A stretch of 29,701 bases of DNA, from NCBI GenBank assembly GCA_937958665.1, contig CALGNM010000404.1:1-29701 (forward strand). The letters are read 5' to 3'. The translations under genes were made by a program, and so were the position numbers. The notes under the pieces are model-generated. The model ran no database searches, was not told the origin of the DNA, and saw nothing but the letters and a program-made list of their open reading frames with translations. Below are positions 50 to 10,225 of the stretch, one piece after another (positions within the stretch are counted from its first letter, which is position 1; each line of letters starts with the position of its first letter). The stretch is from an uncultured bacterium (GTDB taxonomy: Bacteria > Edwardsbacteria > AC1 > EtOH8).

Positions 50-1093
50 CAATGGCAGGTATAGCCTGTGTTCCAGATAGGTCTCTCCGCTGGAAGCCGG
101 CAGAAGAAAGGCCGCCATGAATACCAGCCCCGGCCGGTATCTGCCCGGGTCCCCCGGCCTGGCCGCCCACAGCAGAAAAGCCAGGATGGCCAGGGCCGCC
201 AAACCCTGCAGGATATTGACATCATAGTGCGATGGGGTCAGCGACAAACCGACCGGCAGAACCGCTTTGCCCAAGTATGACAGCACGCCCGGGCCGGCAA
301 ACTTTAAGGAGTTCCCCAGCGGAAGCCCGAAGTCCAGACCGCCCCGGACCATCATCATTCGGACTGTCAGCCAGAGGGCCGTGGCCCCAAAGAACAGGGC
401 CGCAACCTGCTTGGCCCGGCGGTTCCGAAAGCCAATCTTGCTTCCAAAGGCGGCCCAGCCGGCCAACGGGAAGGCCACGGCCGTCTCCTTGGTCAGCAGG
501 GCCAGCAAGTAAGCAGTCACCGACAAAGCCAGCCAGCCGCAGTGACCTCCCCGAAGGGATCTGGCCGCCCCGGCCAGGGACAGGATCAAGAATACCGCCA
601 TCATCACATCGTTGCGTCCGGGGATCCAGGCCACCGCCTGGACCAAAGCCGGATGGACCCCGACCAGCAAGGCCGCCGCCAAAGCCGGGAACCCTTTCAG
701 CCCCATGATGGTCAACAGCCATAAAAACAGGCAGCAGGCCGTTATGTGCCAGGCAAGGTTTGATAAATGGTAGAACCAGGAGTCTCCGCCTCCTAAAAAC
801 GCATCGATGAGCAGAGAGACGGTCAACAGTGGACGGTAGAAAACAACCCCCTCCCGGTCGCCGAAGACATCGTGGGAAAATATCCTGGCAAGCGATACCC
901 CCTGCTTGAGCTCGCTTTGGCTCTTTTGGGTCAGCCGGACATCATCCAGGTCGGTATAGCCGAAGCCAACCGTTTGGACATAGGTAATGGATATGGCCAA
1001 TACCAGCCAAAGGTAGGGTTTAACCTTTGCCGTCCATGGCTGGCCATCCGGCGGAGCCTGATTGGGAGATTTTATTTGTTTATTTCTCTTCAC
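50..1093 (-). CDS. TMTC-like (GT-C fold) polytopic membrane glycosyltransferase, 3'-truncated at the contig edge
   Basis: Absent from the ORF track because it has no stop. Manual translation from GTG at 1093 is open for 348 codons into the adapter, with TMTC-type motifs GYTDLDD, FYRPLLTVS, YHLSNLAWH, HPALVQAVAWIPGRND, LLTKETAV, YLGKAVLPVGLS and EHRLYLP, plus many hydrophobic helices. Overlaps the upstream gene by 14 nt. Confidence 0.85.
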
Positions 1094-1877
1094 CGCCGGC
1101 TTTTATCCCCTCCACCGCCACCCACCAACCGGTCAGGAATTTCAGGGAGGTTTGGGTTCGCCCCCACCGGCGGCAGGCGCCAATCAGCCAGCCGCCAATC
1201 CTCCGGAGGAATGGATGTCGCTTCCGATATAGGATTTCTATTACCGTGGTCATCCCCACCGGCAGGTGCATCAGGGCGGCCGAGCGCCCGACCGAGAAAC
1301 CCGACCGGGATAGAAGTTCCCGGGCCTGACTTGCGGTGCAGAAATAGTCGGTATGGTATTCCTTTCCCTTGAAACGTTCCGCCAGACGGATCCCGGCCCG
1401 AAACAGGGGATTGCTGGCCGAATTGAGAGCCAGGACAATCCTGCCTCCCGGCTTAAGAACGCGATGGCATTCCCGAAGGGCCGAATCGATCTGGGGAAAA
1501 TGGTCAAGGGTGGACGGGGAAACGATTGCATCCAGACGATCGGCTGCCAGAGGCATTTCCCTCACATCGGCGCACAAGACCGCCAGGCGGCCCTCTTGGT
1601 CATTGGCCCTTGCCCGAACGCACATCTTCGGGGATATGTCCATTCCCAAACACCATTCACTGGAGCGCTGATAGAAGGCGGCCTGGCCATGAGCCGCCTC
1701 ATACAGGTCGGTAAACAGCATCCGCCCCCCCCTGTCAATCTCCCAGTCTGCCAGCAGGCGGTTGTATTCTTCCGCCTTGAGCTCGCTCAGCGGGGGGATC
1801 AGGTAGTATTGCCCGACATCCTCGGCCACCCGGTCCCAGTAGGAGGGCCCAAATCCGTTTTCCCTGGCCTGGCTCAC
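1080..1877 (-). CDS. Class I SAM-dependent methyltransferase (Methyltransf_11-like)
   Basis: LGMDISPKM, ADVREMPLAADRLDAIVSPSTLDHF and ECHRVLKPGG motifs. GTG at 1877 chosen for its GTGA overlap with the upstream stop; alternative ATG at 1892. Confidence 0.85.
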   Translation of the reverse strand: MSQARENGFGPSYWDRVAEDVGQYYLIPPLSELKAEEYNRLLADWEIDRGGRMLFTDLYEAAHGQAAFYQRSSEWCLGMDISPKMCVRARANDQEGRLAVLCADVREMPLAADRLDAIVSPSTLDHFPQIDSALRECHRVLKPGGRIVLALNSASNPLFRAGIRLAERFKGKEYHTDYFCTASQARELLSRSGFSVGRSAALMHLPVGMTTVIEILYRKRHPFLRRIGGWLIGACRRWGRTQTSLKFLTGWWVAVEGIKAGGEEK

Positions 1878-8238: not shown

Positions 8239-9131
8239 CGGCTGTCCTCCAAGCGTTTGGTGGATGAGGCAGTCTCCCAGATGAAGGGATTCCTTTTGGC
8301 CAGGTGAAAATCGTACCTGGCCATGATCCTGGCCAGCATCTCCAACAGCAGGGAACCGAAAAGATATGCCAGGTTCTTCATCCCGGCCGGGATCTCATCC
8401 TTCAACAGGTTCAGCACCACCAGGTTGTTCATGGTATCCGGCAGTTCCCAGTCCGGCCGCTGTTTCAACATGTGGAGATAACCTATCAGATGCCTGCGCC
8501 GGACCTTTAGGAAATCCTTGATGTTATCCGGCCCTCGATTCCGGAAAACGGCCTGGGGGACATATTTAGGAAAGTATCCTTTCTCGACAACCTGATGCAC
8601 TATCCAGGTTTCATCGGTGGCGGTATCATCCGGTATGCCTTGGATCACCCGCCGAAAGGCCACCACCTCCCCGGCCTTGAAGCTTTGCATAGCCACCCGG
8701 TGGTGCAACGACCAAAAAAGATTGACATAGAAGCCCATAAAACTGTCGCGGTCATTGAATGGAACTATCCGACCGGCCGTCACCCCAATGGTCTCTTCGG
8801 CAAAGGGTTCTATCAGGCAGGACAAAGCACCTTGGTCCGGGAGGACATCGGCGCTCATCAGCACCAATACATCGCGATCGGCGTTCCCAATGAAGAGGTT
8901 CACCGCCGCCGCCTTCCCGCGGCGCCGGGGTTCGGATATCAACCTTACCCTAGGGTCCCTGGCGGCCAAAGCCCGGACGATATCTTCGGTGCTGTCGGTA
9001 CAGCCGGAAGCCACCACGATGATCTGGCACAGGCCCGATTCCGGCCGATACGTCAAGAGGCGGTCCAGTAACCCGCCGATATTGGCCGCCTCGTTATAAG
9101 CCGCAATGCCTACGCTGTACTCAGTGGTCAT
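8235..9131 (-). CDS. Glycosyltransferase family 2
   Basis: VGIAAYNEAANI, VVASGCTDST, RRGKAAAVN, SADV (DxD-like) and RRRH motifs. ATG at 9131 chosen for its ATGA overlap with the GT9 stop; the ORF track's upstream start is unlikely. Confidence 0.88.
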   Translation of the reverse strand: MTTEYSVGIAAYNEAANIGGLLDRLLTYRPESGLCQIIVVASGCTDSTEDIVRALAARDPRVRLISEPRRRGKAAAVNLFIGNADRDVLVLMSADVLPDQGALSCLIEPFAEETIGVTAGRIVPFNDRDSFMGFYVNLFWSLHHRVAMQSFKAGEVVAFRRVIQGIPDDTATDETWIVHQVVEKGYFPKYVPQAVFRNRGPDNIKDFLKVRRRHLIGYLHMLKQRPDWELPDTMNNLVVLNLLKDEIPAGMKNLAYLFGSLLLEMLARIMARYDFHLAKRNPFIWETASSTKRLEDSR

Positions 9132-10225
9132 AGGTTTCTCTTGATGGCCGCCAGCACCTCTTCTGAAGAAATGCCGGACATGCATTTGGCCCTAGGGCAT
9201 GAAGTTCGGTAGCAGGGCGAACAGTCTGCCCCGGCTGTTAGCTTTTCCCCCCTTCCGTATAAGTCTATTTCCTGCTGGCAGGTGGGCCCGAACAGTGCGA
9301 TGACCTTTACCCCCAGGGCTATTCCCAGATGCATGGCCAGGCTATCGGAGGTGGCCAGCAGCTCCAACCGGGATATCACGGCCGCAAACTGGCGCAGACC
9401 CAAGTCGCAGGAGACGGCCAGAGCCCCGGGAACCGCCCGGACTATTCGGGAAACCAAGGCCTCCTCGTCCGGCCCGCCCAGCACCAGTGCCAGCCCCAGC
9501 TTGCGGCGGTGGACGGCTTTCGCCAGTTCGATGAAATGCTGCTCCGGCCAAGCCTTGGTGGGAAAGGCCCGTCCCACCCCGGTGTTCAGTCCGATCAAGG
9601 GGCGGCCGGCTTTCCGGCCCAGCATTTTTTTTAGGTATCGGTCGGCCCATTCCCTTTCCTCGGTAGTGGTCCGATACTGGTAAGGCTGCCCCCGGTATTC
9701 AAGCCCGGCGGCTTCGATGACCAGCTGCTGATAGCTTTTCTGGTTGACCCTGAACTTCAGATGGTCCGAAAGCCCCAGGTCGAAAAGGTGACGGGATTTC
9801 CTATCCAATGGTACCAGGCAACCCAGGGGATCCCAGCCAAATCCGGTCTTCCGCTCCCCCTCCAGCACCGAGGCCAATCCGGCGGCCCGGGGTTCCTTAT
9901 CCAGGCAGATGATGCGGTCGAAGCTCTCGGCCGAGAGCTGGGTCAGGGCTTCCGGCCCGTAGCACAGCAGGCGGTCTATGGACTGGTTGTTCTCCAACAA
10001 CGGGGCGGCGTCGGGATCGGTCAGCCAAGTGATCTGAAGCCCGGAATCGCTTTGTTTGAGGGCCAGGGCCAGCGGGGTGGTGCGCAGCACGTCCCCCTTA
10101 GCCGCCAGCTTGATGATCAGGCAACGCTTGCTCCAAGCCGAGTATCCGGGGCATCCCCGGCACTGTCGGCCGACCCGGCAGGGCCGGTCGCCTTCAAAAT
10201 GGCGGCAGTCAGTTCTCCAGGTCAT
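9128..10225 (-). CDS. Glycosyltransferase family 9 (heptosyltransferase-like)
   Basis: IIKLAAKGDVLRTTPL, KAWPEQHF, VLGGPDE, TSDSLAMHLGIALG, ALFGPT and terminal CSPCYRTSC...CM motifs; start set at ATG 10225 (MTWRTDC). Confidence 0.9.
   Translation of the reverse strand: MTWRTDCRHFEGDRPCRVGRQCRGCPGYSAWSKRCLIIKLAAKGDVLRTTPLALALKQSDSGLQITWLTDPDAAPLLENNQSIDRLLCYGPEALTQLSAESFDRIICLDKEPRAAGLASVLEGERKTGFGWDPLGCLVPLDRKSRHLFDLGLSDHLKFRVNQKSYQQLVIEAAGLEYRGQPYQYRTTTEEREWADRYLKKMLGRKAGRPLIGLNTGVGRAFPTKAWPEQHFIELAKAVHRRKLGLALVLGGPDEEALVSRIVRAVPGALAVSCDLGLRQFAAVISRLELLATSDSLAMHLGIALGVKVIALFGPTCQQEIDLYGRGEKLTAGADCSPCYRTSCPRAKCMSGISSEEVLAAIKRNL

Follow-up and report, generated by a model that had tools for sequence, protein, structure and literature searches.

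A conserved operon of glycosyltransferase and radical SAM genes in Candidatus Edwardsbacteria and the envelope glycoconjugate that it may build

What does a bacterium build with a row of glycosyltransferases, three radical S-adenosylmethionine (SAM) enzymes and two methyltransferase-fold proteins, all encoded in one compact block? This question is raised by positions 50-10225 of a contig (C404; CALGNM010000404.1, 29,701 nt) from an uncultured bacterium. The contig, analysed here at its full length and called below the window, belongs to a metagenome-assembled genome (GCA_937958665.1) of 2.05 Mb in 411 contigs, which is 94% complete. The closest homologs of the window proteins carry the labels Candidatus Edwardsbacteria and TA06. 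An earlier note on this DNA had proposed an anaerobic pathway, so far undescribed, for building and modifying a lipid-linked or protein-linked glycan or a lipopolysaccharide (LPS) core. Our analysis supports this idea in its main part. We think it probable, with some reserve, that the block is an operon under sigma-54 control that serves an envelope glycoconjugate. Its sugar would be put together and modified by radical chemistry on a lipid carrier in the membrane, and its transfer would follow outside the cytoplasm.

The block comprises ten translationally coupled genes on the minus strand, and neighbours overlap by 4-19 nt or lie at most 1 nt apart. The order of transcription is sigma-54 activator, GT9, GT2a, rSAM1, MTa, rSAM2, DUF362, B12-type radical SAM (B12-rSAM), GT2b, MTb and GT-C, where GT stands for glycosyltransferase, MT for methyltransferase fold and rSAM for radical SAM. 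Pfam scans and open reading frame (ORF) coordinates placed all ten families named in the earlier note on this strand, and no nucleotide-sugar, Wzx/Wzy or ABC export genes were present within 50-10225, as it had said. Its list was correct, but ten genes are not the complete unit. The gene before GT9 encodes a sigma-54 enhancer-binding protein with GAF, AAA+ and Fis-type HTH domains (10209-11726, minus strand; Pfam Sigma54_activat 234 bits, GAF 74, HTH_8 39). Its end overlaps the GT9 start by 17 nt, and it is likely the regulator and first gene of the unit. At the other end the operon continues on another contig, as described below.

Is this arrangement kept in relatives? The collection searched held 19 species genomes of the phylum, our own and 18 others, and the 20 kb around each B12-rSAM ortholog were compared with the window proteins. 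Twelve of the 18 other genomes have such an ortholog, with the same gene order around it. G002, G004-G008 and G017 have every gene between the activator and GT-C, although rSAM2 may be missing; G017 comes from a different family and is 40-61% identical to the window proteins. Genus g6 has a core-only layout (DUF362, B12-rSAM, GT2b and MTb), and G012 shows a variant layout. Directly upstream of GT9 the sigma-54 activator is kept at 67-82% identity in G002 and G004-G008. Of all genes in the cluster GT2b varies least, with 80-85% identity inside the family and 57-61% for the copies of G012 and G017, and MTb follows it in all full and core-only versions. Such clustering is far beyond chance. A lack of synteny elsewhere had been named beforehand as a refuting result, and what was found is a shared order across the phylum and sub-modules across many phyla.

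The other test concerned a possible match to a known cofactor or lipid pathway. The curated NCBIfam cut-offs were reached by none of the 11 proteins. For GT9 the three heptosyltransferase models scored 73.8 against 185.3 (TIGR02193), 58.5 against 134.6 (TIGR02195) and 67.0 against 170.2 (TIGR02201). The best match of B12-rSAM was HpnJ (TIGR03471; 155.1 against 577.6), followed by AprD4 (NF033070; 120.3 against 500), that of MTb was the DVU_1556 family (52 against 155), and GT2b scored 74 against 325 with the AglJ model, below its equivalog cut-off. Heme d1/NirJ, PqqE, mycofactocin and tungsten-maturase identities were tried for the SPASM enzymes and rejected, being far below cut-off (NirJ-type about 50 against more than 500). 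The hopanoid pathway was rejected as well, the HpnJ and HpnH cut-offs not being reached and squalene-hopene cyclase (PF13243) being absent from our genome and every cluster-bearing relative. Thus neither of the two refuting results named in the earlier note occurred, and the literature searched contained no published description of such a cluster.

A clue to function comes from the partners of B12-rSAM (2601-3974, minus strand; 457 aa; Radical_SAM 88 bits), a class B-like, HpnJ/AprD4-like enzyme whose CX3CX2C core (C204, C208, C211) is invariant. In a collection with one genome per species its relatives occupy at least 566 confirmed places, in lineages such as Planctomycetota, Bacteroidota, Desulfobacterota, Elusimicrobia, Omnitrophota, Acidobacteriota, Altiarchaeota, Nanoarchaeia and Methanosarcinales. 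Engelhardtia mirabilis, Tenacibaculum xiamenense and Magnetovibrio blakemorei are among the carriers in culture. Among the best 79 loci outside the phylum, a GT9 gene lies within 10 kb of B12-rSAM in 40 and directly upstream on the same strand in 30 (median gap 120 nt); for contrast, the whole 2-Mb genome studied here has eight GT9 matches. A GT2b-like gene is present in 23 of these loci. The two partners also occur together in T. xiamenense and E. mirabilis, which we take to be aerobic isolates, so the word "anaerobic" in the earlier proposal should be dropped as a requirement.

Comparison of the neighbourhoods of distant homologs with the window proteins defined a module B, consisting of GT9, the small GT2b, B12-rSAM and a methyltransferase. 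An FCPU426 genome carries GT9 (40%), GT2b (58%), a methyltransferase and B12-rSAM (42%), and in a woesearchaeote GT2b (56%) adjoins B12-rSAM (37%). In an Elusimicrobia locus GT9, B12-rSAM, a methyltransferase and a PMT_2 GT-C are consecutive, together with ArnB-like, acyltransferase and small GT2 genes. The methyltransferase of the window, MTb (1080-1892, minus strand), is a class-I SAM-dependent enzyme of 270 aa (Methyltransf_11 67 bits). In the window GT9 and B12-rSAM are separated by a second module, A, which is treated below.

What might B12-rSAM do? Its closest solved structure by sequence is AprD4 (6fd2; E 6e-31, over the radical SAM core), and an ESM Atlas look-up returned generic names only. 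AprD4, together with AprD3, is a radical SAM diol dehydratase responsible for C3' deoxygenation in apramycin biosynthesis (PDB 6fd2). In AprD4 as in the window enzyme the N-terminal domain is B12-like but gives a poor B12-binding score; the window cluster differs in having neither an AprD3-type reductase nor an aminoglycoside context. HpnJ, the top curated family, aligns near full length. HpnJ and AprD4 both act on sugars, and HpnJ, MoeK5 and Fom3 fall together in a published similarity network (PMC9204698). In the HpnI-HpnK-HpnJ system a GT2 enzyme puts a sugar on a membrane lipid, and HpnJ is proposed to contract the ring (PMC9204698). The window cluster resembles this system in combining a glycosyltransferase with a non-methylating, class B-like radical SAM enzyme that would act on a lipid-bound sugar, but the partner is GT9 instead of HpnI, the HpnK deacetylase is missing, and there is no squalene-hopene cyclase. 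As a side observation, in one distant locus a run of GT2, B12-rSAM, GT9 and B12-rSAM ends in a RACo-type reductive activase of corrinoid enzymes (L041:8397-9941), a hint at true corrinoid use by these radical SAM enzymes.

The partner, GT9 (9128-10225, minus strand), is a heptosyltransferase-family GT-B protein of 365 aa (PF01075 89.1 bits against a gathering score of 22). It has two groups of cysteines, an N-terminal cluster (C7, C16, C22, C25) and a C-terminal Cys4 motif (C335, C338, C343, C348). Across 31 homologs C335, C338 and C348 never vary. Of 41 GT9 proteins adjoining B12-rSAM homologs, 40 carry the CSPC...C...C motif, against only 2 of the 7 GT9 paralogs of the genome studied here. 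The extra N-terminal cluster was seen in the Edwardsbacteria and FCPU426 copies. The AlphaFold2 model (pLDDT 88) is closest in fold to 3tov (TM 0.74), WaaF and WaaC, with TM scores ranging from 0.57 to 0.78. The protein shares Pfam GT9 and the GT-B fold with WaaC and WaaF (TM 0.57-0.74) but lies below the cut-off of every heptosyltransferase model. The same model also matches a subunit of the plant chloroplast NDH-photosystem I (NDH-PSI) supercomplex (9grx chain 1, 7f9o chain 6) at a TM of about 0.58, which means that this subunit has a GT9-like fold.

A Cys4 motif in this position recalls TibC, a protein heptosyltransferase of the bacterial autotransporter heptosyltransferase (BAHT) family with an iron-finger formed by Cys339, Cys342, Cys358 and Cys370 (PMC4358343). 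The hallmarks of BAHT enzymes are an N-terminal beta-barrel, a beta-hairpin thumb, the Cys4 iron-finger and a dodecameric assembly (PMC4358343). The C-terminal CxxC...C...C of the window GT9 lies at about the position of the TibC iron-finger. However, no N-terminal beta-barrel is predicted, the additional cysteine cluster standing there instead, and the match to TibC (TM 0.55, 11-12% identity) is weaker than that to WaaC. A lead to the sugar is given by T. xiamenense (L098). Directly before the pair this genome has a phosphoglycosyl transferase and genes with the domain make-up of GmhB, HldD, HldE and GmhA, and after it a GT87 GT-C, another B12-rSAM and a SPASM enzyme. The genome studied here carries GmhA-, GmhB- and HldE-like genes outside the window.

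For assembly on a lipid carrier the key proteins are GT2b and GT-C. GT2b (1874-2608, minus strand; PF00535 93 bits; annotated start probably at 2599, giving 241 aa) matches the Pyrococcus furiosus dolichyl-phosphate mannose synthase (DPMS; 5mlz) with E 7e-28 over residues 3-240, the catalytic part, and ArnC and GtrB with E about 1e-6. The copies beside B12-rSAM homologs in FCPU426 and Woesearchaeota are 56-58% identical to it. Its similarity to solved enzymes points to a polyprenyl-phosphate glycosyltransferase of the DPMS/ArnC/GtrB type, a grouping which the best solved relatives bear out. It consists of the catalytic domain only and has no membrane segment, unlike PfDPMS and GtrB with their membrane helices.

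GT-C (50-1093, minus strand) is represented in the window by its N-terminal 347 residues. Bases 1-49 are an Illumina TruSeq adapter, read directly and identical to 49 bases at many other contig ends, and bases from about 29655 to 29701 are adapter too, so that both window ends are non-genomic. An adapter stands at an end of 382 of the 411 contigs, which shows that the assembly was made from untrimmed data and that its contig ends are artificial; the GT-C gene is therefore truncated there. The window copy gave no Pfam match. It has at least seven hydrophobic segments, and the D-x-D-D after the first of them is conserved in orthologs. A full-length ortholog of 624 aa (L029:5889-7763) passes PMT_2 (PF13231; 28.1 against 26.1) and has C-terminal tetratricopeptide repeats (TPRs). 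By its orthologs, then, and not by the truncated copy itself, GT-C appears to have a PMT_2/TMTC-like architecture. The earlier assignment of a polyprenol-phosphate sugar synthase and a GT-C transferase thus stands on homology, of GT2b to DPMS and of the GT-C ortholog to PMT_2 with TPRs.

The missing end of GT-C was found on contig C353 of the same genome, where a TPR-bearing part (C353:3671-3258) is 46% identical to residues 487-624 of the L029 ortholog and is followed directly by decarboxylase, ATP-grasp and methyltransferase genes. This order indicates that the operon continues beyond the window. In relatives the region 3' of GT-C (ortholog L029) encodes a pyridoxal phosphate (PLP)-dependent decarboxylase of the diaminopimelate/ornithine type, a further B12-rSAM, an ATP-grasp enzyme, a methyltransferase and a FemAB-like protein.

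A DPMS/ArnC/GtrB homolog and a PMT_2 GT-C with TPRs are the kind of components found in ArnC/ArnT, in GtrB/GtrA/GtrV and in DPMS with PMT/TMTC. Such three-component extracytoplasmic glycosylation combines a polyprenyl-phosphate sugar synthase, a flippase and a GT-C; in the cluster GT2b and GT-C belong to one operon and stand two genes apart. The cluster differs from that arrangement by having no GtrA-type flippase and by the interposed three radical SAM enzymes, two methyltransferase-fold proteins, GT9 and DUF362.

Several of these additional genes form, together with GT2a, module A (GT2a, rSAM1, MTa and DUF362), which recurs at 28-44% identity in two other lineages (L045 and L046). GT2a (8235-9185, minus strand; PF00535 82 bits) is read as an ORF from 9185, its annotated start being probably 9131 (298 aa). 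Its orthologs in L045 and L046 are 42-44% identical and adjoin the orthologs of rSAM1, MTa and DUF362, and its best solved relative is 6yv7, a GT2 (E 6e-14). The next gene, rSAM1 (7159-8238, minus strand; 359 aa), has a radical SAM domain (52 bits) and a SPASM/Twitch-type C-terminal domain (SPASM 25.4 against 21.5). Eight orthologs share with it an invariant CX3CX2C (C34, C38, C41) and five invariant C-terminal cysteines (C270, C288, C289, C326, C328). A full SPASM domain has seven cysteines. Five are enough for one auxiliary cluster, which suggests that rSAM1 is Twitch-like rather than a full SPASM enzyme.

MTa (6173-7183, minus strand) is a class-I methyltransferase-fold protein (Methyltransf_11 24.2 bits, cut-off 21.2). 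Its N-terminus bears a membrane anchor (hydrophobic segment 14-32), its SAM loop is divergent, and several of its histidines are invariant. The family is small, since 1.84 billion proteins yielded 79 representatives at E <= 1e-30. Natural fusions join it to DUF362 in one protein (P0265) and to an NAD sugar epimerase/dehydratase in five among those checked (P0289, P0350, P0365, P0368, P0385), which ties the family to sugar chemistry and to DUF362.

The DUF362 protein (3975-5117, minus strand; 380 aa; PF04015 139.9 bits against 24) has six residues invariant in 48 homologs (C287, C290, C347, C363, P364, P365), and its four cysteines end in G-C-P-P. Sequence searches of solved structures gave nothing significant for DUF362 or for MTa. 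The AlphaFold2 model of DUF362 (pLDDT 93.9) was more informative: Foldseek returned malate racemase 7s91 (E 7e-7), LarA 9eia and LarA-like 9q3k (prob 1.00, E 7e-7 to 3e-4), and LarA-family structures were its sole significant fold matches. The LarA superfamily of nickel-pincer nucleotide racemases and epimerases belongs to the same Pfam clan as DUF362 (PMC11770544). The likeness lies in the N-terminal fold, but the TM score is only about 0.4 and the identity 8-17%, and the window protein has an added four-cysteine domain. This C-terminal part weakly matches NuoB (7p7j_B; prob 0.84, 111 columns) and, judged from the model, is probably an iron-sulfur (Fe-S) site of the NuoB type. Of the 19 genomes of the phylum, 17 have LarC and 16 have a canonical LarA, which already accounts for LarC, so that LarC says nothing about nickel-pincer use by DUF362. 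Six DUF362 matches in a 2-Mb genome make an unusual expansion; one of the others, on contig C196 (L049:2768-4407), is a different DUF362 with a two-cluster ferredoxin insertion that adjoins a CDP-alcohol phosphatidyltransferase, an unrelated context.

Between MTa and DUF362 lies rSAM2 (5114-6219, minus strand; about 368 aa), a radical SAM/SPASM protein which in this assembly is read in two frames, with the Radical_SAM half at 5620-6219 and the SPASM half (47.7 bits) at 5114-5641. The frame is broken at a run of seven G (5656-5662), and the halves join if this run is taken as eight. The same break is present in a near-identical assembly (L009; GCA_036824335.1). Contigs of all four public runs, from four different studies of sludge and wastewater, have eight G, the one extra base leaving the frame open; three of them are more than 99% and one about 98.7% identical to the window. 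Orthologs in G002, G004, G005 and G006 are also in frame. Behind the break is either an error of sequencing or assembly or a private mutation, and the gene is intact in the population. Phase variation was considered as its cause and judged unlikely, given the in-frame version in four of four independent runs. Both SPASM/Twitch enzymes of the earlier note are thus real, with the qualification that the second is frameshifted here. About half of the relatives have this gene, which is therefore an accessory one, and its product is not a member of its best NCBIfam families (tungsten-cofactor maturase 119 bits against 380, "Geo_metal" maturase 109 against 400). Near its start, three independent public runs (X1-X3) have one common reading that departs from the window at four close positions, 6042 (T>G), 6049 (C>A), 6055 (A>T) and 6058 (A>C), because of either a short patch specific to the strain or a local error in the assembly.

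How could these components work together? In the scheme that we favour, GT2b would load a hexose onto polyprenyl phosphate at the cytoplasmic face of the membrane, and GT9, probably with ADP-heptose made elsewhere in the genome, would extend the lipid-bound acceptor. B12-rSAM may then remodel the sugar added by GT9, by deoxygenation, ring rearrangement or C-methylation, and MTb may subsequently methylate it. The second module, with GT2a, the Twitch-like rSAM1, the membrane-anchored MTa and the LarA-fold/Fe-S DUF362, would add and tailor a further residue, with rSAM2 as an optional extra. After flipping, the TPR-bearing GT-C would transfer the product to a periplasmic acceptor, possibly a protein or LPS.

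Several observations weigh against this scheme. Each proposed step is drawn from family-level homology and gene neighbourhood. A GtrA-type flippase (PF04138) is absent from 18 of the 19 genomes of the phylum, and the cluster has no Wzx or ABC gene. The B12-binding profile gave 19 bits on B12-rSAM, below the Pfam cut-off of 32.1. Genus g6 has no adjacent GT9 or GT-C, so the full chain is not obligatory. A scan for the sigma-54 promoter consensus (TGGCAC-N5-TTGCW, two mismatches) gave 9 matches where 15 were expected, and none near 9000-13500. Finally, heptose-synthesis genes adjoin the pair in only two of 80 loci, and because of this heptose as the sugar of GT9 is a lead and not a finding.

A bolder version of the same idea can be offered only tentatively. 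The Cys4-finger GT9 and the HpnJ/AprD4-like radical SAM enzyme may be an ancient two-enzyme unit, spread from Planctomycetota and Bacteroidota to archaea, that makes a previously unknown class of polyprenyl-carried sugar, for example a ring-contracted, deoxygenated or C-branched heptose, which GT-C would install on envelope proteins or lipids. The second radical module of Edwardsbacteria would then have been captured, and DUF362 would be a new redox-linked sugar epimerase or reductase.

The main rival divides the cluster into two independent parts that decorate LPS core and lipid A. According to it GT9 and GT2a extend the inner core on Kdo-lipid A on the cytoplasmic side and the radical SAM enzymes tailor the core sugars, while GT2b and GT-C separately add one lipid-carried sugar to LPS in the periplasm, as ArnC and ArnT do. 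The fold of GT9, nearest to the LPS-type enzymes 3tov, WaaF and WaaC, fits this explanation, as do the LpxC and WaaA of a genome that makes LPS, ArnC among the solved relatives of GT2b, and the Elusimicrobia pair locus with its ArnB-like, acyltransferase, small GT2 and PMT_2 genes. As a general explanation it meets the difficulty that the GT9/B12-rSAM pair also occurs in Methanosarcinales and Nanoarchaeia; to our knowledge, archaea are not expected to make LPS. Moreover, GT9 scores below the cut-offs for heptosyltransferases I, II and III and is set apart by its Cys4 motif from most paralogs of its own genome, and the C-terminal TPR array of GT-C is unlike ArnT. On balance we regard this rival as rather unlikely.

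Could the product leave the cell as a diffusible, aminoglycoside-like or moenomycin-like glycoside instead of remaining in the envelope? Here AprD4 from apramycin biosynthesis, the closest solved relative of B12-rSAM, is suggestive, and so are the network group that HpnJ shares with MoeK5 and Fom3 (PMC9204698) and the PLP decarboxylase, ATP-grasp ligase and methyltransferase downstream in relatives and on C353. But three proteins speak for intermediates that stay bound to the membrane: the DPMS-type GT2, the TPR-bearing GT-C and MTa with its membrane anchor. The cluster contains no genes for cyclitol or aminosugar synthesis, resistance or export, and it is kept as core genome across a phylum with genomes of about 2-3 Mb. 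A natural product of this kind is improbable.

SPASM enzymes commonly mature peptides, and one could therefore suppose that these radical SAM enzymes serve a ribosomally synthesised and post-translationally modified peptide (RiPP) or a metalloenzyme cofactor, with the glycosyltransferases as bystanders. This agrees with the top NCBIfam matches of rSAM2, which are the tungsten-cofactor and "Geo_metal" maturases, and with the resemblance of DUF362 to a cofactor enzyme (LarA). Yet both maturase scores fall far short of their cut-offs, half of the relatives do without rSAM2, and rSAM1 travels with a GT2 and a sugar-linked methyltransferase family. Nor would a precursor peptide gene fit in, as every junction is an overlap or a gap of 1 nt at most. 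We consider this explanation very improbable. Tailoring of the side chain of a hopanoid or another polycyclic lipid in the manner of HpnI/HpnJ/HpnH is hardly credible, since HpnJ as the top NCBIfam match of B12-rSAM and the weak GT2b-HpnB and rSAM1-HpnH matches stand against scores of 155.1 versus 577.6 for HpnJ and 44 versus 225 for HpnH, and against the absence of the PF13243 cyclase from our genome and the cluster-bearing relatives, unless it lies in the unassembled sequence of this 94% complete genome.

The rest of the genome and of the window gives some context for the glycosylation operon. Besides LpxC and WaaA, the genome has GT9 (eight matches), DUF362 (six matches) and GT-C/TPR paralogs (at least five). 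Contig C50 (L048:1-2716) encodes a B12-type radical SAM paralog (33% identity) followed directly by a 679-aa GT-C/TPR paralog, a second and smaller radical-SAM/GT-C unit. All long ORFs of the window are on the minus strand. Directly upstream of the sigma-54 activator (11750-15151) are a Ser/Thr kinase with PEGA domains, a 237-aa protein without matches and a protein with a CarboxypepD_reg domain. This trio keeps its position in L010 and L013 and may be a sensing unit that controls the glycosylation operon. Farther upstream (15148-29376), in the same direction as the operon, are MglA/Roadblock-type proteins, a DnaA-like ATPase, a DUF4388-TPR protein and a Che block with CheR, CheD, CheB, CheW and two methyl-accepting chemotaxis proteins and without CheA.

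Antibiotic and hopanoid pathways are the main settings in which radical SAM enzymes are known to tailor sugars. In Edwardsbacteria, if the favoured scheme is right, such tailoring would sit in a housekeeping-type route of envelope glycosylation, phylum-wide in a candidate phylum. Knowledge of the product would give a function to several large families that are now called hypothetical, namely the B12-rSAM clade, the Cys4 GT9 clade, the DUF362 subfamily and the MTa family. T. xiamenense, E. mirabilis and M. blakemorei are cultured and tractable carriers. The product may also reveal new surface-sugar chemistry in anaerobic digesters and sediments.

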